Shown: positions 1 through 16,460 of the stretch, piece by piece
Numbering within the stretch: position 1 is the first letter of the stretch
Layout: every line of letters begins with the position of its first letter
DNA from: a virus
Lineage: Duplodnaviria; Caudoviricetes
Direction: 5' to 3' (one strand)
DNA: 24,819 nt
IMG/VR virus record: IMGVR_UViG_3300005713_000264
Span: 1 to 24,819 of that record
The notes under the pieces: model-generated
Databases searched by the model: none
Told to the model about the DNA's origin: nothing
Seen by the model: only the letters and a program-made list of their open reading frames with translations
Position numbers and translations under genes: made by a program

Positions 1-521
1 CCAAACCCGGCATTGCCGCCGCCCATCCCCATCGCCCCGAGCATCGAGGGCGTCCCGCCGCCGGGCTCTTCCACCAAGTACTGCGGCGCCGCCGCCCCTT
101 CGATGTCGCGGAGCACATCGACCCACTGCCCGTTGATTTGCATCTTTTCGTTCTTGATGTCGCCAACCACGCCCCCGCGTTTCTGAATCTCCGGCACGAG
201 CGACGTCAAATAGTCCTGCGTCGCTTGCTTCCGCGCCGCTTCGCCCGTGAGCCCCTGCACCGTCGGCGCGAAACTATTGATAGCGGCGTCGATGTACCCC
301 CGCACGCTTGTATTCGGACTCTGAAACACACTCGGCGTCGTCGAGGGCGTCGTCGGCGTCGTCTCCTCTTTCACCGTCGGCGGCTGTTTCCCATCGCCGT
401 CCAACGAGTAGCCCGGTTCAGGCTTCGTCTCCATCTGTTGCAGGAGCGCTTGCCGGTCGAGTTCCTCGTCGTCCTCTTCTTCGTCCTCGCGCCGTCTCGG
501 ATCGTCCTGGTCTGCGATCAC
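1..521 (-). CDS. Hypothetical protein, runs off the window edge; candidate internal virion/ejection protein
   Basis: Not in the ORF track. Hand translation: GTG at 521 overlaps the upstream TGA (GTGA), GGAGGG RBS upstream, open to base 1: MIADQDDPRRREDEEEDDEELDRQALLQQMETKPEPGYSLDG...QINGQWVDVLRDIEG...GMGGGNAGF. Function inferred from position only. Confidence 0.75.
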   Translation of the reverse strand, partial: MIADQDDPRRREDEEEDDEELDRQALLQQMETKPEPGYSLDGDGKQPPTVKEETTPTTPSTTPSVFQSPNTSVRGYIDAAINSFAPTVQGLTGEAARKQATQDYLTSLVPEIQKRGGVVGDIKNEKMQINGQWVDVLRDIEGAAAPQYLVEEPGGGTPSMLGAMGMGGGNAGF

Positions 522-1732
522 GCTGGTACCCTCCGTCGAATACACTCGGCCGTCGTCGTCCCCTCGTAGGAGTACGACAAGATGTCGCAGTCACACGTCA
601 ACAATTCAGGGGGATTGCGCTGCCGTTGCGCGATCACCAGATCTGGGTGTTCTTCTTTGAACAACCGATCCAACAGCCCCGCATTTTGACAATCCTGGTA
701 CACCGTCCGATCCAGGCCGTACGGGTGAATCAGAATGTTCGATTCGACGCCCACCCGACGCCGCGCCGCAATCTGCCGGAGCAACGCGCCATCGCCACAG
801 CCCAAATCAATCACCGTCTCAAACGACCGATTCGGCAACGCCTGGAGCAACACCGCATGCGCGGCGAACATCGCCTCGTCCGACATGAATCCATTGCGCG
901 GTTCCCACCCCATTCCCTCGCGTCGATACGGGAACGAGAGGCCCGTCGCCCCTTCCTTCGGGTACCCGTCGCCCTGAAAACACACCTCCGTTTTCGAGGC
1001 CAGCGCATCCGTCGGGACGATCGCGCGGAAAACCGGCGTGAAGATTTCCGCGATGCCGTGCAGACTCGACCACTTCACCGGCCACGACAACATCTGCCGT
1101 GCCCACGTCTGCGCCGGTTCTGGCATCAGCTCGCGGAGCTTCGTTGCTATGTGGAGCGTCGGCAGACAATCAAACGCACACGGCAAATGCGGCACCGGCC
1201 GTACACCAAACCAGCGCAAGAGCATGTTCGTCCCGCGTACGTGGACATACCCTTCCGCCATCGGCCCCGTCGTATCGAACCAGTGCTCCTGGTCCCACAC
1301 CCGCGAAAAGAACGTGCGGCAACACGCGGGATACCCGAGCAAACGCCCGATCGTCTCGTTGTCACTCGTCTCCCAGGCCTTCGCCCAAGCGTCGAGATGC
1401 GCCGGCCGCGTGATCACCACGCGCAAATCAAACGGCTCCCCCAGCCGGACGGGTTGCGACGCCGACGCATAGGCGAGGCTCCGGGCCACTTTCCCCACGG
1501 GCAACACGACAAGCCCGTGCGCCGCCATCGCTTTCGCGAGATCCGTCAGTCCTTCTGGCGCGACCGTCTGCAACGTACTGTCCCTGAGCCCCACAATCAC
1601 CGACTGCCGTTCCGCCTCGACAAACGCCGCCGACACCAGCGAGAGCCGCGGTTCCCAGACTGCCCGTGCCGCCGCCGAGGTCCACGTGATCCGCGGCGAG
1701 AATTCCGGAATCCGGAACGGGAGGCGTCTCAT
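518..1732 (-). CDS. DUF483-like Cys-motif domain fused to a class I SAM-dependent methyltransferase domain (404 aa)
   Basis: Start moved to ATG 1732 (MRRLPFRIPEF), overlapping the rSAM stop (ATGA). Motifs GRLLGYPACCRTFF and HLPCAFDC; C-terminal methyltransferase motif I VIDLGCGDG. Confidence 0.75.
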   Translation of the reverse strand: MRRLPFRIPEFSPRITWTSAAARAVWEPRLSLVSAAFVEAERQSVIVGLRDSTLQTVAPEGLTDLAKAMAAHGLVVLPVGKVARSLAYASASQPVRLGEPFDLRVVITRPAHLDAWAKAWETSDNETIGRLLGYPACCRTFFSRVWDQEHWFDTTGPMAEGYVHVRGTNMLLRWFGVRPVPHLPCAFDCLPTLHIATKLRELMPEPAQTWARQMLSWPVKWSSLHGIAEIFTPVFRAIVPTDALASKTEVCFQGDGYPKEGATGLSFPYRREGMGWEPRNGFMSDEAMFAAHAVLLQALPNRSFETVIDLGCGDGALLRQIAARRRVGVESNILIHPYGLDRTVYQDCQNAGLLDRLFKEEHPDLVIAQRQRNPPELLTCDCDILSYSYEGTTTAECIRRRVPA

Positions 1733-2946
1733 CGTCGGCCTCCCTGGTCCGTGTGATCGCCGTGATGATCGCCGTGCGGCACGTCGCCATGCCCCGAGAC
1801 GAGGCCAGCCGCCACGCCGAGGAGCTGCGCCTCGATCATCGGCCGCTGCGGCGACTGCGAGATCGGGACGAGGCCCTTCGCCGCCAGCTCGTCTTCGAGA
1901 TCGGTGAAGAGGGCCATCAGCAGGCCACAGTGCATCGAGCGATTGCGCCAGTCCCCGTCCAACCCCTCCCCTGGACAGTGCCCGCCGCACGCCGCAAAGA
2001 ACCGACACCCCTGACAGCCCCCATCCTCGAAGGGCGTCAGGTACAGCACGAGCGATCGTTCCCGGCCCGCGGTGTCGGCCTTCATGAACGACACGCCCTG
2101 CTTTTCCGTCCGCCCGCAATTCTTCCGGCCGCCCTGCCCATCAATGCCACGCACGGCTGCGGTCGTCAGCGGATCGCAATGATTCAGCACACAGTTCGCG
2201 CCCGGTTCGCGGAGCAACGACAACCGCAGATCGTCAAACGGCGAGACGTGCGAAAAGCCCACCAACGCCTCGCGCAGCCGGCGCATCACCGCAATCGAGC
2301 GCGGCGTCGAGAGCTGGAGCAACGCGCCGTCTTCGGTATCCACTTCGAGCGTGTGCAGATTGACATACCGGAGGCCCTGGTCTCGGAGCGTCAGGAGCCA
2401 GTGAATGAGCTGCATCACATCCCCGTCCGTCCGCGCATTACCGGCGCTCACGGTCACAATGAGGCTGACGCTGAGATGCTCCGCTAAGAGCCGTTCGAGC
2501 GCCGCTTGACTCTTCGCCGTAATCGCATCGGTCGTCGCGTCTTTGCCGTCCTTCGCCCGCCGTGTCCGATTGAGTACCCCCGGCCCATCGAGACTCACGC
2601 CAATGGAGACCCCGTACTGCTTGAAGAGCGCCATGTGCCGATCGGTAATCAACGACGCATTCGTCTGAATCCCCGGCGTCACGCCCTTCTCCTGTCGCCC
2701 CCAACGAAACAACGCTTCGAGGTCCTTCAACGGCAGGAGCAACGGCTCGCCCCCGAACACCGCGAAATTCGTTTTGTGCCCCTGACTATCGAGCTGCCCG
2801 ACGCCTTCCGCTTCCGCCGCGCGCTGCATCTTCACGAGGTCGTACACCGGGCCGCGCTCGTTGCCGGCTTTGCGCATCGGCTCCTGGTAGCAGTACAAAC
2901 ACCCAATGTTGCACGCGACGCCGAGCGGTTGCAGTTCAATGCTCAT
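1729..2946 (-). CDS. Radical SAM protein with C-terminal SPASM domain (anSME/peptide-maturase-like)
   Basis: CNIGCLYC (CxxxCxxC), FGGEPLL, IQTNA, GVSLDGP; SPASM cysteines ANCVLNHC, KNCGR, CQGCRFFAACGGHC (Cx2Cx5Cx3C), MHC. Start ATG 2946 (alternative TTG 2952). Confidence 0.95.
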   Translation of the reverse strand: MSIELQPLGVACNIGCLYCYQEPMRKAGNERGPVYDLVKMQRAAEAEGVGQLDSQGHKTNFAVFGGEPLLLPLKDLEALFRWGRQEKGVTPGIQTNASLITDRHMALFKQYGVSIGVSLDGPGVLNRTRRAKDGKDATTDAITAKSQAALERLLAEHLSVSLIVTVSAGNARTDGDVMQLIHWLLTLRDQGLRYVNLHTLEVDTEDGALLQLSTPRSIAVMRRLREALVGFSHVSPFDDLRLSLLREPGANCVLNHCDPLTTAAVRGIDGQGGRKNCGRTEKQGVSFMKADTAGRERSLVLYLTPFEDGGCQGCRFFAACGGHCPGEGLDGDWRNRSMHCGLLMALFTDLEDELAAKGLVPISQSPQRPMIEAQLLGVAAGLVSGHGDVPHGDHHGDHTDQGGRR

Positions 2947-2948
2947 GG

Positions 2949-5024
2949 TCAAATGTCCGTGTGATTCGCGTCGTTGTGCAGGCCCGCGTCCTGGTGCGCC
3001 GCGTCCCCGTGCCCCGTGTCACTGTGCCCTTGATCCGAGTGCGTCTGATCGGTGTGCGGCACATCCGCATGCCCATCTGAGTGCGCCGCGTCGGTATGGG
3101 ACCCGTCACTATGCGGCGCATCGCTATGCGTATCGACGTGCGCCGTATCGAGGTGTGCGTCCTCGTGCCCAGCGTCCGTGTGCGTATCGGTGTGCGGCAC
3201 GTCCGAATGCGGCACGTAGGACGAGGGCCGATCGTCGTGATCGTCCCCGTGGGGCGTATCCCCGTGCGCAACATCCTGATGCGCCACATCATCATGCGCG
3301 ACGTCCCCGTGCGATCCGTCCTGGTGCGGATAATCGCCGTGCGAATCCCAGTGCGACGGCGGCGTGCCGCCGCCGAAAAAATCCTGATGAATGTCGTTGT
3401 GCTCCGCGTCGCCGTGCGCCTGATCAATGTGCGCCGTATCGGTGTGCGCGTCGAGATGTCCCGCATCCGCATGAGAATCCGTGTGCCCGTCGCCGTGATT
3501 CTGGTCGCCGTGCGCAATGTCCCCGTGCGCGACGTCCTGGTGCATATCGACGTGCGCGGAATCCCAATGCGTGTCGGAATGCGCGTCATCCGAATGCGTG
3601 TCCGCATGCCCGAGGTCCGCGTGCCCCGCGTCGCCGTGCGCGACGTCATAGTGCACGTCGTTGTGCACCACATCCAGATGCGCCACATCGACGTGCTCCG
3701 CATCGGCGTGCGGCGCATCCGCGTGCGTGACGTCACTATGAATCTCGATGCTGGTGTAATCCTCCTTAATCATCAGAATGATCTGCCCGTAGAGATACAC
3801 GCCGGTCCCCCAGACCGTCGCGCCACTCGCATCTTTATAGAAAATCAAGAACTGACTACCTGGGCTCGTCGTACAAATCGCATTCGGCACCAGCCCCAGC
3901 GAATCCTGCGCAAAGCCCAACGTCTGCCACACCGTGCGCGCCGCAATGCGCCCATCCGGAATGGCCATGATGAGCTGTTGCGCCCCGCCGCCCGGCGTCG
4001 TGTTTTGCAACACGTACGTGACGGTCATCTTGTTCCCGTCCACCTGATACATGAGCGTCGCCACGTTCCCCGCCGTCACCGTCCACGTCCCCGGATACGC
4101 CGAAAACCACCCGGCGTTGTACGGCATGTCAATCCACTGATCCGCTTTCGAGAGCACACGCCAGCCCCCACCACGGACCTTCTGCATCTGCACCGATTCC
4201 CGCGGATTGAGGATGTAGCGCACCCCCGCCGGACAATAGACCCGCGACGACACCGTCGCGTACGACGCCGCATGAATCAAGGACACTTCAAACGTCCCGT
4301 CATTCACGACCGTTTTCACTTCGTCATCCGGCACCGCCGTAGACTCGAACCCGTTGATGTACAGATTCGCCGCCGTCGGCAACAACCGAAACGTCTTGAT
4401 CGCGCGGGGCATCGTAATGACATTCTGCGCGACCGAAAACTGGAAGTACCCAATCGACTGATCCAACGTCTGCGACGCAATAATCCATCGCGCCTTCAGC
4501 GCGTTATAAATGAGCGTCACAAACGACGCCGGGTGAATGACAAACTCTGCCTGCGCATTCACCAGCGCCGGGTACCGAGGCAACCGGAAGCGATTCCGCG
4601 CCGCCGATGCCTGTCCCTCCGGCGACGCATCATGCGCCAACCGCACCGCGTAGCCCACCTCGGTAATGTTTTCGACAATCAACACTCGACCATCAAGAAT
4701 GGTCCCGTGCAAATCCTGCGGCACCTGGAGCCCGGTGACCATCGCCCCATCCACCTGGGGATCCAGCCGGAGCACCGCCGCATCGTCCAACCCCGGCGGC
4801 GCGTAGTTATGGGTGACCGAGGCCATCAACTTATCCGTCACAATCCCGTCGTAGACGACGCGGCCCGTCGTCACCGTATTCGTGTGCAGCTCTTTGTGCG
4901 TCCCGTCCTCGTTGTGCTCGACGTTCCAACTCGCCCGAATCCGCGACACGAGATTGTCAAATTCATCGACGAGCGCAGCCCCAATCGCCTGGAGTTTCTC
5001 GCGATTGATGAGCATCAACTTCAT
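2949..5024 (-). CDS. Tail fibre/receptor-binding protein with C-terminal His-x-Asp repeat domain (691 aa)
   Basis: Start moved to ATG 5024 (TAATG overlap with nozzle gene). N-terminal helix and EHNEDGTH motif, two related beta-rich modules and a third beta domain, then 263 aa of HxD repeats; follows adaptor and nozzle genes. Confidence 0.8.
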   Translation of the reverse strand: MKLMLINREKLQAIGAALVDEFDNLVSRIRASWNVEHNEDGTHKELHTNTVTTGRVVYDGIVTDKLMASVTHNYAPPGLDDAAVLRLDPQVDGAMVTGLQVPQDLHGTILDGRVLIVENITEVGYAVRLAHDASPEGQASAARNRFRLPRYPALVNAQAEFVIHPASFVTLIYNALKARWIIASQTLDQSIGYFQFSVAQNVITMPRAIKTFRLLPTAANLYINGFESTAVPDDEVKTVVNDGTFEVSLIHAASYATVSSRVYCPAGVRYILNPRESVQMQKVRGGGWRVLSKADQWIDMPYNAGWFSAYPGTWTVTAGNVATLMYQVDGNKMTVTYVLQNTTPGGGAQQLIMAIPDGRIAARTVWQTLGFAQDSLGLVPNAICTTSPGSQFLIFYKDASGATVWGTGVYLYGQIILMIKEDYTSIEIHSDVTHADAPHADAEHVDVAHLDVVHNDVHYDVAHGDAGHADLGHADTHSDDAHSDTHWDSAHVDMHQDVAHGDIAHGDQNHGDGHTDSHADAGHLDAHTDTAHIDQAHGDAEHNDIHQDFFGGGTPPSHWDSHGDYPHQDGSHGDVAHDDVAHQDVAHGDTPHGDDHDDRPSSYVPHSDVPHTDTHTDAGHEDAHLDTAHVDTHSDAPHSDGSHTDAAHSDGHADVPHTDQTHSDQGHSDTGHGDAAHQDAGLHNDANHTDI
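2952..3740 (-). repeat. Coding repeat: 53 His-x-Asp motifs, mostly with 1-2 residue spacers
   Basis: Counted by hand: blocks of 26, 9 and 18 units separated by FFGGGTPPS and RPSSYVP; every His in the tract has Asp at +2; DNA is degenerate, not a perfect tandem repeat. Confidence 0.97.
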
Positions 5025-6940
5025 TACGCGCTGCCCTCTTCCGATCGCGGACGCCACGCGAACTGATCCAAACTCCACTGTTGCGACACCGCGGACCCCG
5101 CGGGATCGCGAAACACAAACTGCACGAGATTCGCCCCCGTCATGCTCAAACTATCGAGCGGTCGGACCACGTACGGCTCGCCCACCGCACTCGCGACGAG
5201 CGTCACCTGCCGAGACAGCGCTTCAATCCCAAAGTTCCGATAAATCAACACCTCCATCGTTGCCGCCCCCGCCTGCGCCACAAGCACCGCCGAGAGCACC
5301 CCAAACTTTTGATAGACCTTCCCCACCGCAAACGGCGCCGTCACCACGTACGCGTGATACGGCTGGCCGTTATCCGTCACCCCGGTATCGCCAAAATGGA
5401 TGTACGTCGTCCCGCCCCCCGCGAGGCCCGTCAGCTCCGTCCCAAACACTGGCCGCATGATCCGGTTCGCATCCTGGAAGAGCGTGAAGCAGGCCGCCAG
5501 CGCCGGCAATCCGTCGTGATAGAGCGACGCATCGTACTGCGTCTCATACACAAAGAGCCGCGACGGCGTCGTCGCCGCCCCGAGCGGGACGCTGTACCAG
5601 ACCTGATCGAGTTCGGGGTAGTGCACCATGCGCGGCGGAACAAGCGCGTTCTTATTCCACGTTTTCCACGTCCCCTCGACATTCCCGCCCAAATCCTCGA
5701 CGCCCTGCCGGCCGATCCGACACAGGCCCTTGGCTTCGTCCAAAAAATAGACACACGGCAACCCCGTCGCATCGAGCCCGGAAATCGCCCCGCGCATCGT
5801 CGCGCCGCGCGACCAGCTCTCGGTCACAGGCGCATACGCCGAGGCCACAATGCCAGTCCGCACCATTTTATAAATGCGACTCCGTTTGAACGGATAGACC
5901 GCGCCATTGACGCCGGCCACAAGTCCCGTGATCCCGCCCCCCGAGAGGCCGTCAAACGTGATGTATTGCAGCGTCGCCTGCGGAATGCGCTCGTCATTCC
6001 CGACGCCATCATCCGAGGCGACCGGCGTCCACCACACGGTCGCGTCATTCCCTGGCGTGAAGTACGACCCCGCCAGCACAAGCCGATCCTCATCGACCGT
6101 CACATGCCGCGCTGCGCCGGGCGCCACATACTCCCCCGTCGCCTCAGACAAAGGAAACGTCGCATAGCCCGTCGTGTACGGCGTCTTATCGGTATAGCTC
6201 GACGTCCCAATCGGCACCGTCGCAATCCGATAGAACAAGATATTGTCGAGACTCGCTTCGACTTCCCAATGCGTCTGTCCTTCAGAGGTCACGAGGGTCG
6301 GGCCCTCGGTCACCTGTTTCGTCACCACCGCCCCGTCCGCCAACCCCGAGGGCACGAACGTGAACACGTTCGACGCTTCCGCCCGCCGCACCGTCACACC
6401 ACTCACTTGCTCGATGTACCGAATCCGGTAGTACCGCGTCCCCGTAAACGTCCCACCTGTCGAAGAATTCGAGACACTGATATTCGGCGTCTGCGCAAAG
6501 CCTGCCCACCGAAGCACCGTCCCGTTCCACACCAGCAACCGATCAAACCCGCCCTTCGCCGCAATGAACAACTTGCCGTGCAGACTCACCGCGTTCGCGT
6601 CGTAATTGTTCGCGCTCACCGTGACGAAGTTATTCGCCCGCGCGACGCCGCCCTGCCACGTCCCGCCGACGCGCCGATCGATATTGCCGTTCGCATCGAT
6701 CGCCCACAGCTCGTCGTTCGCCATGTTGTTCGTCGGCGTGTGACGAAAGAGCGCGACGACCGACGCGGTAAACGGCGCCCCCGTCATGTCGATCCCCGTC
6801 GAACCGCGCCGCTTCGCGCCGAGCGCGCCGTTCCGGAAATCCACATTCCGGGCGTCGGTCATTTCATTCGATTTCAGCAGCAGCGGACTATCCGAGTCGT
6901 TGATGCCGCCGCGCAGATCGGTGAGGAGAATCGGATCCAT
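5024..6940 (-). CDS. Tail nozzle/packaged-DNA stabilisation protein (P22 gp10/T7 gp12-like role)
   Basis: 638 aa, beta-rich; N-terminal DLRGGIN...DARNVDF..GAL.KR.G pattern typical of podovirus nozzles; follows adaptor gene with TAATG overlap. Confidence 0.75.
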   Translation of the reverse strand: MDPILLTDLRGGINDSDSPLLLKSNEMTDARNVDFRNGALGAKRRGSTGIDMTGAPFTASVVALFRHTPTNNMANDELWAIDANGNIDRRVGGTWQGGVARANNFVTVSANNYDANAVSLHGKLFIAAKGGFDRLLVWNGTVLRWAGFAQTPNISVSNSSTGGTFTGTRYYRIRYIEQVSGVTVRRAEASNVFTFVPSGLADGAVVTKQVTEGPTLVTSEGQTHWEVEASLDNILFYRIATVPIGTSSYTDKTPYTTGYATFPLSEATGEYVAPGAARHVTVDEDRLVLAGSYFTPGNDATVWWTPVASDDGVGNDERIPQATLQYITFDGLSGGGITGLVAGVNGAVYPFKRSRIYKMVRTGIVASAYAPVTESWSRGATMRGAISGLDATGLPCVYFLDEAKGLCRIGRQGVEDLGGNVEGTWKTWNKNALVPPRMVHYPELDQVWYSVPLGAATTPSRLFVYETQYDASLYHDGLPALAACFTLFQDANRIMRPVFGTELTGLAGGGTTYIHFGDTGVTDNGQPYHAYVVTAPFAVGKVYQKFGVLSAVLVAQAGAATMEVLIYRNFGIEALSRQVTLVASAVGEPYVVRPLDSLSMTGANLVQFVFRDPAGSAVSQQWSLDQFAWRPRSEEGSA

Positions 6941-7614
6941 TACGGCACGCCCATCGGTCCCCAGCGGCGCGTGCCGATGTCCTCCCAGTCCCGACTGTTT
7001 TGCTTGCGCGAGAAGTACGCGCGCTTCGCCAGGAAGTAGCGGAGATCGGCGCGACGCGTCTCGTACTCCAGCTTGAAACTCTTCTGATACGCCGTCTGCC
7101 GTTCAATCTTCAACGCCTCGTCGTAGAGCACGCCGTGCACCAGCACATCGTGAAAATCGACGGGAAACGCGGGGGCATCCCCATCGGCCACCATATCCGT
7201 GCCCAGGGCGAGCACATCCGCCCGGAGCGTCGAAATCGTGGACGGCTTCGGGTACAGCGTGATCGTCATCGAATCTTTCAGATGATTCGCAATCGCATAG
7301 ACCCGCGGGTACCCCGACGTGTTCTGGTCCGCGTCCTCTTCACGAATGTCGTTCATCGACACTTCGCGCAAGACGCCTTTGATGTGGACTGGGTCGAAAA
7401 TCGTGAAGACGTGCGCGACGTTCGCGTAGGTGAGCTGCGGATCGCCGATGATCGTGTCCTTGACGACCGTCGCGCGTCGCACCTTCTCCATGCCCACGCC
7501 GCTGGTCACTTCGGCATTCCGCAGATTCAATTCGGTTTTGATGCGCGTGCGCGCCTCGGCCGTCGTCAGGTTCAGCCGATTCATCACGGCGTTCTGAAGT
7601 TCTAAGAACGTCAT
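6940..7614 (-). CDS. Head-tail adaptor protein
   Basis: 224 aa; MTFLELQNAVMNRL start, GYPRVY, LYPKP and PAFPVDFHDVLVHG patterns typical of podovirus adaptors; synteny. Confidence 0.75.
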   Translation of the reverse strand: MTFLELQNAVMNRLNLTTAEARTRIKTELNLRNAEVTSGVGMEKVRRATVVKDTIIGDPQLTYANVAHVFTIFDPVHIKGVLREVSMNDIREEDADQNTSGYPRVYAIANHLKDSMTITLYPKPSTISTLRADVLALGTDMVADGDAPAFPVDFHDVLVHGVLYDEALKIERQTAYQKSFKLEYETRRADLRYFLAKRAYFSRKQNSRDWEDIGTRRWGPMGVP

Positions 7615-7618
7615 GACG

Positions 7619-8161
7619 TTACTCGCCCGGTTTCATCTGCGCGAGCAACGCCTGACGATTCAGCTCGTCTTCGTCCTCCAACTGCGACCGTTTCAGATCC
7701 GCCTGCGCCTCTGGCGTCCAATCGGGCGTCGCCCCCGCGCCCATCTCCCCCGCCGCCGCACCGAGCGCGGCCAACGCATCCGCGTCAGGCGACGCCGCCT
7801 TGTACACCTCCAGATCCGTGGGCAACGGCGGCGCCTCCAGCACGGGAAATTTCGACTTCATTCCCGCCGTACCCGAGGGCGTCGTGCGACCGAACGCGCC
7901 AGAAATCGCCGAGGCCGCCCCCGGCAACACCGCCCCCAACCCCGGAGGTAACGCCGGCCTCGGCGCCCCCTTCCCCAACGCCCCAGAAATCGCTCCAGGC
8001 AGCGACCCGAGCCCCGGCAGGTTTGGCATCGGCCGCGCCGCGCCAGGCAACGACGGCGCCGGCAACGTCCCAACCCCCGGCAATTTCGGCACCGGCAATT
8101 TCGTCCGCCGCGCCGCCTTCGTGAGCTGGTCCCCAAACGACAACGGATTCCACCACGCCAT
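7619..8161 (-). CDS. Pro/Gly-rich low-complexity hypothetical protein
   Basis: ATG with AGAGGGGG RBS; repeated LPG and AISGA motifs; acidic C-terminal helix EDEDELNRQALLAQM. Confidence 0.7.
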   Translation of the reverse strand: MAWWNPLSFGDQLTKAARRTKLPVPKLPGVGTLPAPSLPGAARPMPNLPGLGSLPGAISGALGKGAPRPALPPGLGAVLPGAASAISGAFGRTTPSGTAGMKSKFPVLEAPPLPTDLEVYKAASPDADALAALGAAAGEMGAGATPDWTPEAQADLKRSQLEDEDELNRQALLAQMKPGE

Positions 8162-8246: not shown

Positions 8247-8429
8247 TTACAACGTCAGATTCACGCCACGCCAGATCCCGAAGGCTTGCAACAACCACAG
8301 GACCAGGAGCAAGACGACCAGCACCCGAATCACGAGCCGAATCGGCGGCGACATAGGGATGTACGTTTCCACCAGGTACAAACAAAGCCCGAGCACGATC
8401 AACACGACGATCACAGTGATGATCGACAT
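8247..8429 (-). CDS. Small two-TM membrane protein, Thivi_2564-family-like
   Basis: 60 aa; two hydrophobic helices joined by ETYIPMSPPIR, the YIPM signature recalled for that family. Confidence 0.8.
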   Translation of the reverse strand: MSIITVIVVLIVLGLCLYLVETYIPMSPPIRLVIRVLVVLLLVLWLLQAFGIWRGVNLTL

Positions 8430-9437: not shown

Positions 9438-10370
9438 CTAGACTTGTGTCAAGACAAAGCCCCGGCTCTTGTTGTTCGTCGTGAACTGGAGCATCGAGTA
9501 CAGCTTCGAAACGTAGCCGTGCGCGTTCTGGATCTCCTGCGTCTCGCCGCGATCGCGGAAGAATTCCTTCGAGACCTTGAGATTCGTGTGCTTCGTGTTG
9601 AAACCGTAAATCCGCGTCCCGCCGTACGGCGAGAACACGTACCGCCCGGTCTTGAACGCGAGCGTCCGGAAGCCGACCTTCGCGTCCTCGACGTCGATGT
9701 AGCGCGCGAGGGTTTGAATCGAGCCTTCGTAGATGGCCTGCGTATCGCCGTCACTGACGAGGAGCGTGGGCATCGAGCCGCCCGTGCCCTTCGCCGCTTC
9801 GTTGAACGCCTTCGTGAGCTGCGCCTGGATGTTCGTGCCGGCCGCGGCGTACGTCGCGGTGTAATGCCGCCACCACGCATCGGCCGCTGAGTCGATGCCC
9901 CCGACGTTGCCCTGCCCAGAGTCCGGATAGATCCCGAGCAAGCCCAGGAACCCGTCCGTCGCCGCCGCGAACAGCGCCTCTTCGATCAGATCGTCATGCG
10001 TTTCCGCGCCGTTCTCGATGATGGACTTCACGAGCGCGACCTTCTGATTCTCCGACGGGTTCTTCGCCTCGTCCCCTTTACTCCAGACCATCTCGACGCT
10101 GAGCTGGCCGGGCGTGTAGACCGCCGTCGTCAGCACATCAGTCTTCGTCAGCGACGTCGTTTCCAGATCCGTCGCGAGAAAGCCCGAGTTCGGCGACCGA
10201 CGATAATCGAGCGGTTCCTCGATCGTCGGCCCCATGCTGATTTTCTTGATCCCGTTCTGCTTATCGAGTTCGCGCATGAGCGCGGACTCGGCCCACTGAT
10301 TCGCCGGCTTCTTCATCGCCGCGATGACCGCGGGATAGGACGCCGCCAGAATCTGACTGACAGTTGGCAT
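9438..10370 (-). CDS. Major capsid protein (podovirus-type)
   Basis: 310 aa; GPTIEEPLDY, FLGL, GNVGGIDSAADAWWR motifs; strong codon bias; AAGGAGTGAGG RBS; follows scaffold. Confidence 0.85.
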   Translation of the reverse strand: MPTVSQILAASYPAVIAAMKKPANQWAESALMRELDKQNGIKKISMGPTIEEPLDYRRSPNSGFLATDLETTSLTKTDVLTTAVYTPGQLSVEMVWSKGDEAKNPSENQKVALVKSIIENGAETHDDLIEEALFAAATDGFLGLLGIYPDSGQGNVGGIDSAADAWWRHYTATYAAAGTNIQAQLTKAFNEAAKGTGGSMPTLLVSDGDTQAIYEGSIQTLARYIDVEDAKVGFRTLAFKTGRYVFSPYGGTRIYGFNTKHTNLKVSKEFFRDRGETQEIQNAHGYVSKLYSMLQFTTNNKSRGFVLTQV

Positions 10371-12590: not shown

Positions 12591-14740
12591 GGCATCAACC
12601 TCGCGCCACTCTCCGCGCGCTTGAGAATCGGCTGCACGGTCTCGGGCGGCGTCACCGGCGCGAGACGCGGCGGCCCCGGCGGCGCCCCGCCGCCCGGCGC
12701 CATCCCCGGCCCCGGTTGGCGCACCATCATTTTCGAGACCGCATCCTGAATCATCGTCGCCGCCGCCTGAATGTCGGCCGGCGTGAGCTGGATGCCGGTC
12801 TTGAGGAGCAGCGCCACGGCCATCGGATTGAGCAGGTCCTCGCCGCTGAAGCGATACGAAATGTTCGGCGCCTCGGGCTTGTCCTCGGGCGGCTCTTTGC
12901 GAATCAGCTTGTTCGGATCGTGGCCGTGCAGTTGAATGAGTTCCCGTTCGAGCTGCGACCGATCGACCGACTTACTGTTCGCCGTCAGGTTGTAGAGCTT
13001 GAGCGTGTTGGTCTGCCGCGTCTGCAAATCGACGCGATCGGAACTATCGGCGACGATGTCCCACAGAAATTCGCCGAGGAGATCGGCAGGCTCCACCGGC
13101 TGGAGTTCTTCGCCGCCGAGCTTCGGCACCCGCACGTACTTCGTCCCGGCGCGAAACTTCTGCATGAGCGAGAAGAGGACTTCGGCGCCTTCGACGAGGA
13201 ACCGATTCGTGCGGCCCTTCTCGTAATCGAGCCGCACCTGCCCCGCACTCTGCACGATCTTCGCTTCCGTCGCACTGCGTTCGTTCGGCGTCTGCGTCCC
13301 GAGCTGATTGTTCGACAGACTCCACGACCGATCGAGATCGGCGCCGATGATCGTCTGAAACTGAAAACTCTCGCGCGGATAGGTGGCCCGCGCCACTTCC
13401 CCAATCATCCGCGAGCCGTCGCCATTGACCGGCACGATGTCCTGATACTCGCCGCGCTTGAGCGCCTCGGCAATCTCGTCATCGACGAGATTCACGTTGT
13501 ACCAGCGGATCGGCACGCTGTGATCGCGCTGCCGGAGCATCTGCGATCGCGATCGAATCAGCTCACGCACCTGCGGCCGGCCCGCTTCGGTATCCGAGGG
13601 GGGAATCGCCGTATCCGACACGTAGGTGAGCGTCGCCACACGCACCGGCAATTTCCGGAGCCCCTTGTAATAGCCCGGCCGCCCCGGCGTCTCGGGCGTG
13701 CCCTCGGGCGCCTCCAGCGTGGGCGGCTGCGCCGGCACCGCCGGCTGTTCGGGCACCCACTCCTGCCAGTCGGTCTGGTCGTACTCGACCGGCTCATCAT
13801 GCCCCTCGACGAGCACGAGCCGACGAATGCAGTTGGGATGGAACTTGTCCGTGTCAAAGAGCCACGCGTAGTACCAAATCTGTGTCACGCGCACGTACTG
13901 CGTCGCATCGACGTAGAGCTGCTCGATGTCGTCCGTCAGCCCGCGGGGCCGGCGCGATCCGGTCCCCTCAAACTCCGGGGGCACACTCGGCCACGTCTTC
14001 TTCGCCGCCTCGATCGTCATCCACGACTGCACGCCGAGCCACGGCGCCTGATCCCAGTTGCTCGATCGAAATTCCGGCGGCCAGAGAAAATCCGCGGGAC
14101 TGACGCGATCCCACGTGAACTTCTGCGCGACAATTTTCTTCACCGTGACCGTCGTCGGCGCCCCCGGCGTGAGCCCGCCAAACGGATCGACGAGGGGCAC
14201 CCCCGGCATGGCCATCTGGACGTCTTCGGTGTGCCGTTCCAGCCCGATGAGCGAGACCATCACGCCGGCCGCGTTGATCACATCCGCCAGACACTCGTCG
14301 ATCATGTAAGCGGCCTGACACTCGTAGTGCAGCACGTCGTTCAGATCGGCCGTGACCTTCGCCGCCTTCTCCTCGAACTCCGGCGCTTTCGCACTCGCCA
14401 CGATCTTCGGGAGCTGATAGTTGAGCTGCGCCGCCTTCTGCTTCGATCGCGCCCAGTCCTCCGGCAGACTGAGCCGATCCGGCTCGCTGCCCTCTTCGAC
14501 CCCGCCCGCGCCAAAGGGCCGCTGCACCCGATGCCGCACGTTCTGCTGCCACTTGGTGAGGAACTGCTCGCGATATTTCTCACTCGCGGCAATCCGCGCC
14601 CGCCACTCGTCGGTCTGTTTCTTCGTGAGCTTCGACGGATCGCGCCGCATCGGCGCCACGGCCGGCGCGGCGGGCGGGGGCGGCGCCGCGAGCGCCGCCA
14701 CGCCCCCAGGCGCGAGCGGATCGAGGCCCTGGTCGATCAT
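12587..14740 (-). CDS. Portal protein (717 aa)
   Basis: Start moved to ATG 14740 (ATGA overlap with terminase stop); size, RVSPADFLWPP and RSATEA motifs; follows TerL. Confidence 0.88.
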   Translation of the reverse strand: MIDQGLDPLAPGGVAALAAPPPPAAPAVAPMRRDPSKLTKKQTDEWRARIAASEKYREQFLTKWQQNVRHRVQRPFGAGGVEEGSEPDRLSLPEDWARSKQKAAQLNYQLPKIVASAKAPEFEEKAAKVTADLNDVLHYECQAAYMIDECLADVINAAGVMVSLIGLERHTEDVQMAMPGVPLVDPFGGLTPGAPTTVTVKKIVAQKFTWDRVSPADFLWPPEFRSSNWDQAPWLGVQSWMTIEAAKKTWPSVPPEFEGTGSRRPRGLTDDIEQLYVDATQYVRVTQIWYYAWLFDTDKFHPNCIRRLVLVEGHDEPVEYDQTDWQEWVPEQPAVPAQPPTLEAPEGTPETPGRPGYYKGLRKLPVRVATLTYVSDTAIPPSDTEAGRPQVRELIRSRSQMLRQRDHSVPIRWYNVNLVDDEIAEALKRGEYQDIVPVNGDGSRMIGEVARATYPRESFQFQTIIGADLDRSWSLSNNQLGTQTPNERSATEAKIVQSAGQVRLDYEKGRTNRFLVEGAEVLFSLMQKFRAGTKYVRVPKLGGEELQPVEPADLLGEFLWDIVADSSDRVDLQTRQTNTLKLYNLTANSKSVDRSQLERELIQLHGHDPNKLIRKEPPEDKPEAPNISYRFSGEDLLNPMAVALLLKTGIQLTPADIQAAATMIQDAVSKMMVRQPGPGMAPGGGAPPGPPRLAPVTPPETVQPILKRAESGARLMP

Positions 14741-16215
14741 CCGGCCCTCAACACCGCAGGCGCCCAGTTCTCGACCCCGCGGCGCCGTTCCCGACGCGCG
14801 ATCAGCCGCCGCCGCCAGACCAGCTCCGGCGTCTCGCGCGGTTCTCGCGAGGGGCCGCCGCGATCCTGCGCGAAGTAGCGCAGACAATCCGCCGCGTCAT
14901 CCTCGGTCCCGACCGTCTGAATGTCCTGCGGATCCTTCGGATCGATCACCATCGTCGGGAACGTCCGCACCGTGTGCGGACAGCCGCTTCTGAGGACGCG
15001 CAGCCGGGGAAACGTCACCGGCCCGTCGTTCCGGAGTTCCGTCCGCGTGTCGCGGAGCCACGTGTGCAGCGTCACCCACCCCGCCACGCGCTGCTTATCC
15101 GCTTCGATCATCCCCACGCCGGCCTTCTCGAAATGCTCCGCAATCGACGGGCCCTCGTGTTCTTGCCACATCGCCGTGTCGCCAATCGTGTAGCGAATCT
15201 TCAGCCCCACGCTGCGCCGCGTAATCTCCGCCGCCGCGTCGGCGGGCACGAGTTCCTTGAACACAAATTCCTGAAACACGATCGCGGACCCGTCGGTCAG
15301 ACACGCGATCCACAGACACAGCCCCGGATTGCCGCCCACCGAATAGCCCCAATCGACCACGCGCACAATCTGCACATGCGGCGCGAAGACGATCGGCTGC
15401 CCCCGCCACGTCGGCAACGTGTCGATGACATGCCACGGCCGCCCGTCCTTGGTCTCCGCCCACTCGGAGAAGAACTGCCCCTCGACCACCCACTCCCCAT
15501 ACCGCAGCGCTTTTCTGAGCGCCTCCGAGGGCAGATTCTTCAGCTTCTTCTCGTAATCCGCCTGATTGACGTACGGGTTGTCGTCCATGTTGCAGGTGAT
15601 GCGCTGGTAGTCCTCCGGCGTGTACTCGGGCGCCTCGTCATACGTCGGGTTGTGATCGATGAAGAGCTTCTTCACCCAGGCCGCGCCCGGCCCCACCGGG
15701 TTGGTCGCGAGCCGCACGAGCGGCACATAGCCCGGAATCGGCGAGCGCAGACTCGTGCACATGAACGTGAACTGCCGGTAGGTGAACGTCGCCGCCTCAT
15801 CAATCCCCAGCCACTCGAATTCCGAGGACAGATAGCGCGTGAGCGTCGCATCGTCCTCGGCGTGCCCAAAATGGAGCAGCGATCCGTTCGGAAACCGCAG
15901 CACGAAATCCGTCGCGTGCCAGGCGCGGGGATCCAACCCGAGCTGCGTCAGCTCGTAGGGCACGAAATTCAGATGCGAGAGCCGCAGCTCCGGCATCGAG
16001 CGGCGCACGATAATCGCGCGGAAGCGCGGCGTGGTGAGACACCGCAGATACGCATCCCACCGGAGCCAGATCGACTTGCCGCCGCCCCGGCCCCCTTCGA
16101 GGAGGACATAGGGTTTGTCCGACTCGTGCCCGCGCTTCTGATGCGCCAGCATCCGATAGACCACCGTGGCCTGGCCGCCCTTCTCGACCGTGACCGCCTC
16201 GGCGACCGCCCCCAT
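14737..16215 (-). CDS. terL: Terminase large subunit
   Basis: Walker A GGRGGGKS, Walker B WLGIDEA, coupling motif LATNP, nuclease residues VVDWGY and DDAADCLRY. Confidence 0.95.
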   Translation of the reverse strand: MGAVAEAVTVEKGGQATVVYRMLAHQKRGHESDKPYVLLEGGRGGGKSIWLRWDAYLRCLTTPRFRAIIVRRSMPELRLSHLNFVPYELTQLGLDPRAWHATDFVLRFPNGSLLHFGHAEDDATLTRYLSSEFEWLGIDEAATFTYRQFTFMCTSLRSPIPGYVPLVRLATNPVGPGAAWVKKLFIDHNPTYDEAPEYTPEDYQRITCNMDDNPYVNQADYEKKLKNLPSEALRKALRYGEWVVEGQFFSEWAETKDGRPWHVIDTLPTWRGQPIVFAPHVQIVRVVDWGYSVGGNPGLCLWIACLTDGSAIVFQEFVFKELVPADAAAEITRRSVGLKIRYTIGDTAMWQEHEGPSIAEHFEKAGVGMIEADKQRVAGWVTLHTWLRDTRTELRNDGPVTFPRLRVLRSGCPHTVRTFPTMVIDPKDPQDIQTVGTEDDAADCLRYFAQDRGGPSREPRETPELVWRRRLIARRERRRGVENWAPAVLRAG

Positions 16216-16435: not shown

Positions 16436-16460
16436 AGAGAGAGAGAGAGAGAGAGAGAGA
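16436..16460 (+). repeat. (GA)n dinucleotide tract, about 12 units
   Basis: Directly visible within an AT-rich patch. Confidence 0.95.

Follow-up and report, generated by a model that had tools for sequence, protein, structure and literature searches.

Introduction

Triceptide synthases, which are radical S-adenosylmethionine (rSAM) enzymes of the SPASM type, link an aromatic ring to the C-beta of the residue at +2; in the parts of PMC11002830 and PMC11499958 drawn on here, Trp, Phe, or Tyr is joined to Asn or Asp and His to Ala, Arg, or Lys, and a His-to-Asp link was not found. For the HXS system (HxsA-D), the part of PMC13128918 drawn on here reports rSAM-dependent maturation of the His-x-Ser repeat protein HxsA, with a single +8 Da change and cleavage. 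An "rSAM module" of Thermus phages Cumys and phiMa has been proposed to act in DNA modification (PMC11437467; bioRxiv 10.1101/2024.08.14.607894); the part of that paper drawn on here calls the first module gene unknown and does not contain the words "histidine" and "tail fiber." Here, we describe a three-gene cassette in the tail operon of a tailed virus (Duplodnaviria; Caudoviricetes; IMG/VR record IMGVR_UViG_3300005713_000264, positions 1 to 24,819, the whole of this 24,819-nucleotide stretch being called the window). The cassette encodes P0001, a probable tail fiber ending in an array of His-x-Asp (HxD) triplets; P0002, an rSAM/SPASM enzyme; and P0003, its DUF483-like partner.

The cassette is real and widespread, works like a repeat maturase of the type known from ribosomally synthesized peptides that undergo post-translational modification (RiPPs), and lies outside every named family tested. 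Gene order, the motif itself, the cofactor motifs of the enzyme, two-way co-occurrence, and the portability of the array were observed directly. We consider it likely that the enzyme modifies the His-x-Asp triplets of the probable fiber. On balance, we lean toward a conserved cassette in which the rSAM enzyme, likely helped by the DUF483-like partner, modifies these triplets, most likely by a cross-link from the His ring to the Asp C-beta, a structure that we predict by analogy with slightly better than even confidence.

Results

The array, the enzyme, and the partner are encoded by translationally coupled genes

The cassette has the following features.

2949..5024, minus strand: P0001, 691 aa, probable tail fiber or appendage with the HxD array, following the adaptor and 638-aa genes
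3762..4847, minus strand: three predicted beta-rich domains of P0001, residues about 60-421 (AlphaFold2 predicted local distance difference test, pLDDT, mostly 70-94)
2955..3740, minus strand: array of 53 His-x-Asp triplets, residues 429-690 (pLDDT 30-42, no regular fold)
1729..2946, minus strand: P0002, 405 aa, radical SAM/SPASM enzyme without an N-terminal recognition domain (PF04055 above cut-off)
1927..2193, minus strand: SPASM region with eight Cys and the C277-G-R-T280 motif (family conservation)
1747..1791, minus strand: four HxD triplets at the P0002 C terminus (motif count)
518..1732, minus strand: P0003, 404 aa, a Cys/His domain joined to a short class I methyltransferase domain
923..1732, minus strand: DUF483-like domain of P0003 with GYPxCC and HLPCxxxC (invariant Cys/His; fold match)
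518..901, minus strand: compact class I SAM-methyltransferase-like domain of P0003 (DLGCGDG motif; alignment-profile PDB matches)

Four junctions, running from the 638-aa gene upstream of P0001 to the gene at 521, are each overlapping or 2 nt apart: a TAATG overlap before P0001 (5022-5026), a 2-nt gap before P0002 (2947-2948), an ATGA overlap before P0003 with a GGAGG site upstream (1729-1732), and a GTGA overlap after P0003 (518-521). The three cassette genes are translationally coupled, as a first-pass annotation of this DNA had described. Its statement that the window holds no short precursor, protease, transporter, or sulfatase also agrees with our searches, which found no leader-bearing precursor, protease, or exporter and no sulfatase match among the window proteins scanned.

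The 53 triplets reported at the end of P0001 were counted exactly, and every His in residues 426-691 (53/53) belongs to an HxD. Shuffling the array 5000 times with its composition kept gave a mean of 11.3 HxD and a maximum of 20. Triplet spacing is mostly 5 (35 times) or 4 (14 times). His codons (CAC 37, CAT 16) and Asp codons (GAC 27, GAT 26) are mixed, and Tandem Repeats Finder reported only five patches of 2-4 copies in the array DNA, which shows selection on the protein rather than DNA slippage; an origin of the array as a DNA minisatellite was ruled out on the same grounds.

P0001 has 14 full-length relatives, 37-54% identical in the N-terminal part, and all 14 carry the array. Its first two beta-rich domains are copies of one module that recurs in P0137, and the array is predicted to be disordered when unmodified. 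Searches of Pfam, PHROG, NCBIfam, and PDB sequences gave no match to P0001. With the predicted structure, all 10 Foldseek matches in the PDB at E<=1e-3 were tail structures: seven tailspike or baseplate proteins and three chains of 6O38, which is listed simply as a chaperone-substrate complex and which we take to be a phage tail fiber with its chaperone. These matches and the place in the operon make a tail appendage probable, so that the earlier label of tail fiber stands on position and fold likeness and not on any sequence family.

The rSAM family, the array, and the partner occur together in phages and bacteria

The forward search drew on 246 rSAM loci: four loci plus the best 79 of 141 stretches from viruses, the best 80 of 260 from genomes, the best 80 of 435 from metagenomes, and three Thermus phages in GenBank. 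Clustering at 90% identity left 61 clusters from viruses, 72 from cellular genomes (one row, L145, being from a genome flagged as unpublished), and 55 from metagenomes. An array was called as an open reading frame (ORF) with at least six [HF]-x-[DN] in 50 residues, and the partner with a profile built from the collected loci. Arrays were present in 58/61 viral clusters (49/50 when well flanked), 51/72 cellular clusters (37/51 when well flanked, or 41/51 at four motifs), and 33/55 metagenome clusters (10/13 when well flanked). The partner was found in 60/61 viral, 68/72 cellular, and 48/55 metagenome clusters. At six motifs, the controls HxE, KxD, HxK, and HxQ were called in none of the three sets and HxxD in 1/188 clusters (0/61 viral); DxH was detected too, as a by-product of period 4.

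The reverse search started from the array. A DNA pattern for five HxD units, run on viral contigs (33 of 64 parts), returned 122 loci, 80 of them with flanks. Among 19 diverse arrays, 15 share their locus with the rSAM family (on 12 contigs, several of which the forward search had also found). The remaining four form one group of large partial genomes: one genome contains a complete cassette at a distance of at least about 40 kb, and two contain the partner gene elsewhere. The other 61 flanked loci were low-diversity tandem repeats or unparsed, and lacked the rSAM. Conserved neighborhood in both directions, which the first-pass annotation had anticipated, is therefore borne out. Given that dozens of unrelated phages and many bacteria carry the trio, the enzyme likely modifies the triplets.

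The array is a portable tag with a variable three-residue grammar

In viral arrays, 2347 of 2388 His lie within Hx[DN], Pro never occupies the middle position, and spacing ranges from 3 to 9. Position 1 varies among H, F, Y, and W and position 3 between D and N, with some phages using HxN or FxN; in locus L043, FxN accounts for 37/46 motifs. This interchange of His with Phe and of Asp with Asn matches the grammar of three-residue cyclophanes, by analogy, and is a poor fit to metal binding.

The array is a portable tag, found on unrelated tail proteins, twin-arginine translocation (Tat)-type proteins, and short peptides. Phage carriers comprise a 95-aa Trp-repeat domain (42), distal-tail or LamG proteins (10), collagen fibers, Phage-tail_3 proteins, and the P0001 type, and tail genes lie beside the cassette in 7/10 viral neighborhoods scanned and in Cumys. 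The cassette is not phage-specific. Cellular carriers include large unannotated proteins with a terminal array (26 related), small proteins with a twin-arginine pattern (14/25 by regular expression, 13 credible by eye), and, at some loci, HxD peptides of 45-113 aa. The 10 cellular neighborhoods scanned contained an alpha-ketoglutarate-HExxH peptide hydroxylase above cut-off in three cases and a B12-rSAM RiPP methyltransferase in one.

Thermus phage phiLo (L007:14807-19100) encodes three large HxD proteins, with 72, 101, and at least 18 motifs, on the strand opposite to the rSAM and at a distance of 4-8 kb from it, and at locus L325 an HxD protein lies tens of kb from the cassette. These distances suggest that the rSAM acts in trans.

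Several further loci vary the arrangement. Large phages (L074, L075, L083, L085) encode several collagen-like fibers as well as array proteins that stand alone, in which HxN and FxN abound and some of which have Cys-rich ends. Myxobacterial carriers (L100, L104, L128, L147) are crystallin- or LamG-domain proteins of 1100-1600 aa, encoded immediately upstream of the rSAM, with only 2-4 terminal aromatic-x-Asp units; in L100 and L104, the rSAM is fused to the partner. The rSAM and partner also occur at L144:9932-17208 (Bradyrhizobium) and at L153, in clusters that further encode another rSAM, a B12-rSAM RiPP methyltransferase, an HExxH hydroxylase, and a methyltransferase; no HxD substrate was found in these clusters. 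A cassette among transposases was seen on a contig assigned to a Nitrososphaeraceae archaeon (L113:9499-12696).

P0002 belongs to an rSAM/SPASM clade of its own

P0002 is a member of the radical SAM/SPASM superfamily (PF04055, 45.5 bits) with CxxxCxxC and GGE motifs and auxiliary-cluster Cys at 252, 257, 277, 311, 314, 320, 324, and 340, confirming the first-pass view of a complete enzyme. All eight SPASM Cys are present in 198/198 family members, R279 in 192/198, and T280 in 168/198; the CxxxCxxC residues Cys-12, Cys-16, and Cys-19 are present in 195/198, the three others being truncated. The four terminal HxD of P0002 itself, which the first-pass annotation had missed, are part of a wider pattern: a C-terminal tail with at least two HxD occurs in 54/61 viral and 12/72 cellular clusters.

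Kinship with the XyeB, GrrM, and FxsB maturases or with Hxs enzymes, suggested earlier, did not hold. P0002 had 41 rSAM matches in NCBIfam, and the 25 listed were all far below cut-off. Scores in bits against the cut-offs of triceptide-synthase families were 34.5/450 (TIGR04496), 42.1/310 (TIGR04261), 48.1/370 (TIGR04269), 68.9/445 (NF041707), and 79.7/425 (NF041718); those for HxsB and for anSME (TIGR03942) were 32.9/370 and 66/349. NCBIfam likewise gave no match of P0003 or P0001 to Hxs families. The best PDB sequence match of P0002 was anSME (75.8 bits). In a tree with five GrrM, eight FxsB, and one AmcB-like row plus anSME and HxsB, and without XyeB, HaaB, YhhB, or HtkB, the 23 P0002-family rows formed one branch (Shimodaira-Hasegawa-like approximate likelihood-ratio support 100, base unresolved) outside the GrrM, FxsB, and AmcB-like clades. 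From these scores and this placement, the P0002 family is its own clade and not a member of the triceptide, Hxs, or anSME families.

Position 280 was the top column separating Asp-type from Asn-rich loci: Thr is present in 106/118 Asp-type and 2/12 Asn-rich loci (Fisher p 1e-7, relatedness ignored; 58/198 rows unlabeled, 10 intermediate rows dropped, one row misaligned), and Asn-rich arrays are paired with Ala, Gly, or Ser in four separate lineages. This covariation is suggestive only. At L004:6056-9184, L294, and L022:4320-9176, two rSAM paralogues lie in tandem or nearby, one with a 19-HxD tail; in L004 and L294, one paralogue has CTRT and one CTRA, and such pairs are possibly separate enzymes for different triplets. 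A divergent family member at L288:8423-13243 has the CGRT motif replaced, and its carrier mixes HxD with about 20 HxE units.

P0003 combines a putative metal site with an optional methyltransferase

P0003 had been described as a DUF483-like/methyltransferase fusion. The DLGCGDG motif is invariant in the family alignment, whose profile matches many PDB class I methyltransferases, and the predicted fold of the first domain matches Atlas clusters in which 20% and 43% of members carry DUF483 (template modeling (TM) scores of 0.85 and 0.82). Against the DUF483 profile itself (PF04467, cut-off 25 bits), P0003 gave no match and three of seven relatives gave 20.4-23.5 bits, so this part of the description falls short of the Pfam cut-off. 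C137, C138, H182, C185, and C189 are invariant in 44/44 aligned sequences and form a probable metal site. The methyltransferase domain is shorter than in most relatives, and its motif is found in the partners of 46/59 viral and 20/68 cellular clusters, so that the methyltransferase is optional. The partner is fused to the rSAM in 17/72 cellular clusters.

The cassette lies in a podovirus-type morphogenesis operon

The minus-strand operon of this virus record runs from terminase through a portal-like gene, major capsid protein, adaptor, and a 638-aa gene to the cassette.

14737..16215, minus strand: terminase large subunit (PF04466 and PHROG matches), start of the operon, portal-like gene next
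9438..10370, minus strand: major capsid protein, podovirus type (NF033394, 152.7 bits against a cut-off of 80)
6940..7614, minus strand: SU10-type head-tail adaptor (PF24175, 44.2 bits against a cut-off of 27)
5024..6940, minus strand: 638-aa gene upstream of P0001, syntenic in loci L167, L021, and L029

The 638-aa product has no family or PDB match in Pfam, PHROG, NCBIfam, and PDB searches; from its position, it would occupy the tail-nozzle slot of podoviruses. A 180-aa Pro/Gly-rich ORF (7619-8161, minus strand) lies between the adaptor gene and those upstream of it; the three closest relatives contain nothing that matches it, and its end looks like the start of the gene at 521, a likeness that is not significant. 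A 60-aa hydrophobic ORF without an NCBIfam match (8247-8429) lies on the plus strand within the structural operon, and a 25-nt AG run (16436-16460) lies in the non-coding region separating late and early genes.

Discussion

In the mechanism that we propose, modification would occur in the host cytoplasm before assembly. The 5'-deoxyadenosyl radical would take a hydrogen from the Asp C-beta, and the Asp radical would add to the imidazole two residues upstream while the auxiliary clusters accept an electron, giving -2 Da per triplet. R279 and T280, beside an auxiliary cluster, may read the Asp or Asn side chain. P0003 would serve as an obligatory co-factor protein, its optional methyltransferase adding +14 Da. 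In the weakest step, the product would stay on the virion rather than being cut out as a peptide, providing a stiffened, acidic, imidazole-rich, protease-resistant extension for adsorption or particle survival. More tentatively, at a little under even confidence, phages of several tail types would staple dozens of HxD units on their tail appendages into a poly-cyclophane chain by means of an undescribed rSAM family and a DUF483 partner, with bacteria using the same portable tag on exported proteins.

Several points weigh against a cross-linked virion fiber. The chemistry is proposed by analogy, and the best score of P0002 to characterized cyclophane synthases (NF041718) is far from the cut-off. 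The P0002 family has the first three SPASM Cys, as does anSME, and the GrrM, FxsB, and AmcB-like rows lack them. HxsA, the one characterized His-x-X repeat protein, carries +8 Da on one repeat and not -2 Da on each, according to the part of its report drawn on here, which serves as a warning that the array chemistry may differ. The T280 covariation reduces to only five independent pairs (3.8 the same way, 0.0 opposite; median sign-test p 0.125). Arrays are missing from 14/51 well-flanked cellular clusters at six motifs (10/51 at four) and from viral locus L024 of the window's own clade, a record that is 30% complete. Cyanobacterial and acidobacterial genomes with the enzyme pair showed no three-unit HxD run above control, suggesting that other substrates exist or that substrates can be very short. 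The virion location of P0001 is inferred, and its whole-chain TM scores to the Foldseek matches are weak (0.11-0.17).

The best-surviving alternative, although unlikely, is that the pair modifies the triplets otherwise. Candidate changes include epimerization, Asp decarboxylation or desaturation, a bond to a His N, and a composite product that also involves the methyltransferase and resembles the +8 Da of HxsA. The separate clade with its anSME-like two-cluster ligand set favors it, as do the HxsA precedent and the dedicated partner with four invariant Cys and one His, a component that triceptide clusters do not need. Nevertheless, a strict i/i+2 spacing in which an aromatic residue comes first and Asp or Asn third is closer to cyclophane than to epimerase substrates.

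It is still less probable that the array is an unmodified metal-binding or pentapeptide-like fiber and that the rSAM and partner are metal or assembly helpers or act on another substrate. The iron sites formed by HxH in T4 gp37 offer a loose parallel to His/Asp ligands. The composition is His/Asp-rich, the period is near 5, the L043 FxN variant matches Pfam Pentapeptide_3/4 (E 2e-15), and the HxD tail of the rSAM could be a metal store. Yet the FxN units that replace HxD in most L043 motifs cannot bind metal, the 3-9 spacing breaks a regular beta-helix and no fold is predicted for the array, and the catalytic motifs of the rSAM are fully conserved. Once modified, the array may bind metal. DNA modification by the cassette, as proposed for the Thermus phage module, is highly improbable: homologues adjoin deazapurine DNA-modification genes in cyanobacteria according to the part of PMC11437467 drawn on here, and one cyanobacterial genome has the enzyme pair without an array, but the phage cassette lies within a set of tail genes and is accompanied by a repeat protein in 58 of the 61 viral clusters, and no Que or Dpd family was found among 80 proteins of 10 cellular neighborhoods plus five single genes.

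If the cross-link reading is correct, radical-mediated side-chain cross-linking would join the known modifications of phage structural proteins, RiPP chemistry would build a structural polymer on a virus particle, and DUF483 would gain a function. A His-Asp link would be new relative to the parts of the triceptide literature cited above, and the array would serve as a portable, apparently leader-light tag with which proteins could be made rigid. Searches of the open full-text literature turned up no paper that describes an HxD-repeat protein as the substrate of an rSAM, and none in which an rSAM modifies a virion protein; members of the P0002 family could be present in triceptide supplements, which, like subscription journals, lay outside this scope. 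The parts of PMC12186529, PMC9062424, and PMC13434306 drawn on here had no relevance to that family. The first-pass statement that no case was known on a phage structural protein thus agrees with the open literature, qualified by the three-gene module of Thermus phages, whose repeats go unmentioned in the part drawn on here.

Among known systems, we compared the triceptide synthases XncB/XyeB, OscB/GrrM, MscB/FxsB, YxdB, HaaB, YhhB, HtkB, and ChlB. They share with the cassette a SPASM-type rSAM without an N-terminal recognition domain and, in the publications as far as drawn on here, a linked substrate with aromatic-X2-X3 motifs, including His1 and Asp3/Asn3 separately; HExxH hydroxylases also occur in some cellular neighborhoods of the cassette. 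The cassette differs in its separate clade, in having more auxiliary-cluster Cys than GrrM and FxsB, and in its substrate, a large protein tail with dozens of units, together with a DUF483-like partner and no protease or transporter among the window proteins scanned. anSME has the same eight-Cys auxiliary ligand pattern as P0002, but the Asp after its third auxiliary Cys is replaced by G-R-T in the P0002 family. In the HXS system, as proposed for the cassette, a His-x-X repeat on an extracytoplasmic, non-peptide protein undergoes rSAM-dependent maturation; as described in the part of its report drawn on here, it uses two unrelated rSAMs plus HxsD, five basic HxS repeats, and one +8 Da site in host anti-phage defense, whereas the cassette has one rSAM and an acidic array, is phage-encoded, and falls outside the Hxs families.

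The closest counterpart is the Cumys module, which consists of the same three genes: Cumys_13 (54 HxD), Cumys_12 (47% identical to P0002), and Cumys_11 (36% identical to P0003), directly after baseplate and collar-fiber genes. Cumys differs in being a baseplate-bearing phage, in carrying the array on a 95-aa domain, and in having a partner without the methyltransferase. The three-gene module itself was already noted in Thermus phages in the part of PMC11437467 drawn on here. Since the cultured Thermus phages phiMa, Cumys, and phiLo, which have a tractable laboratory host, carry the cassette, the proposed modification is directly testable.

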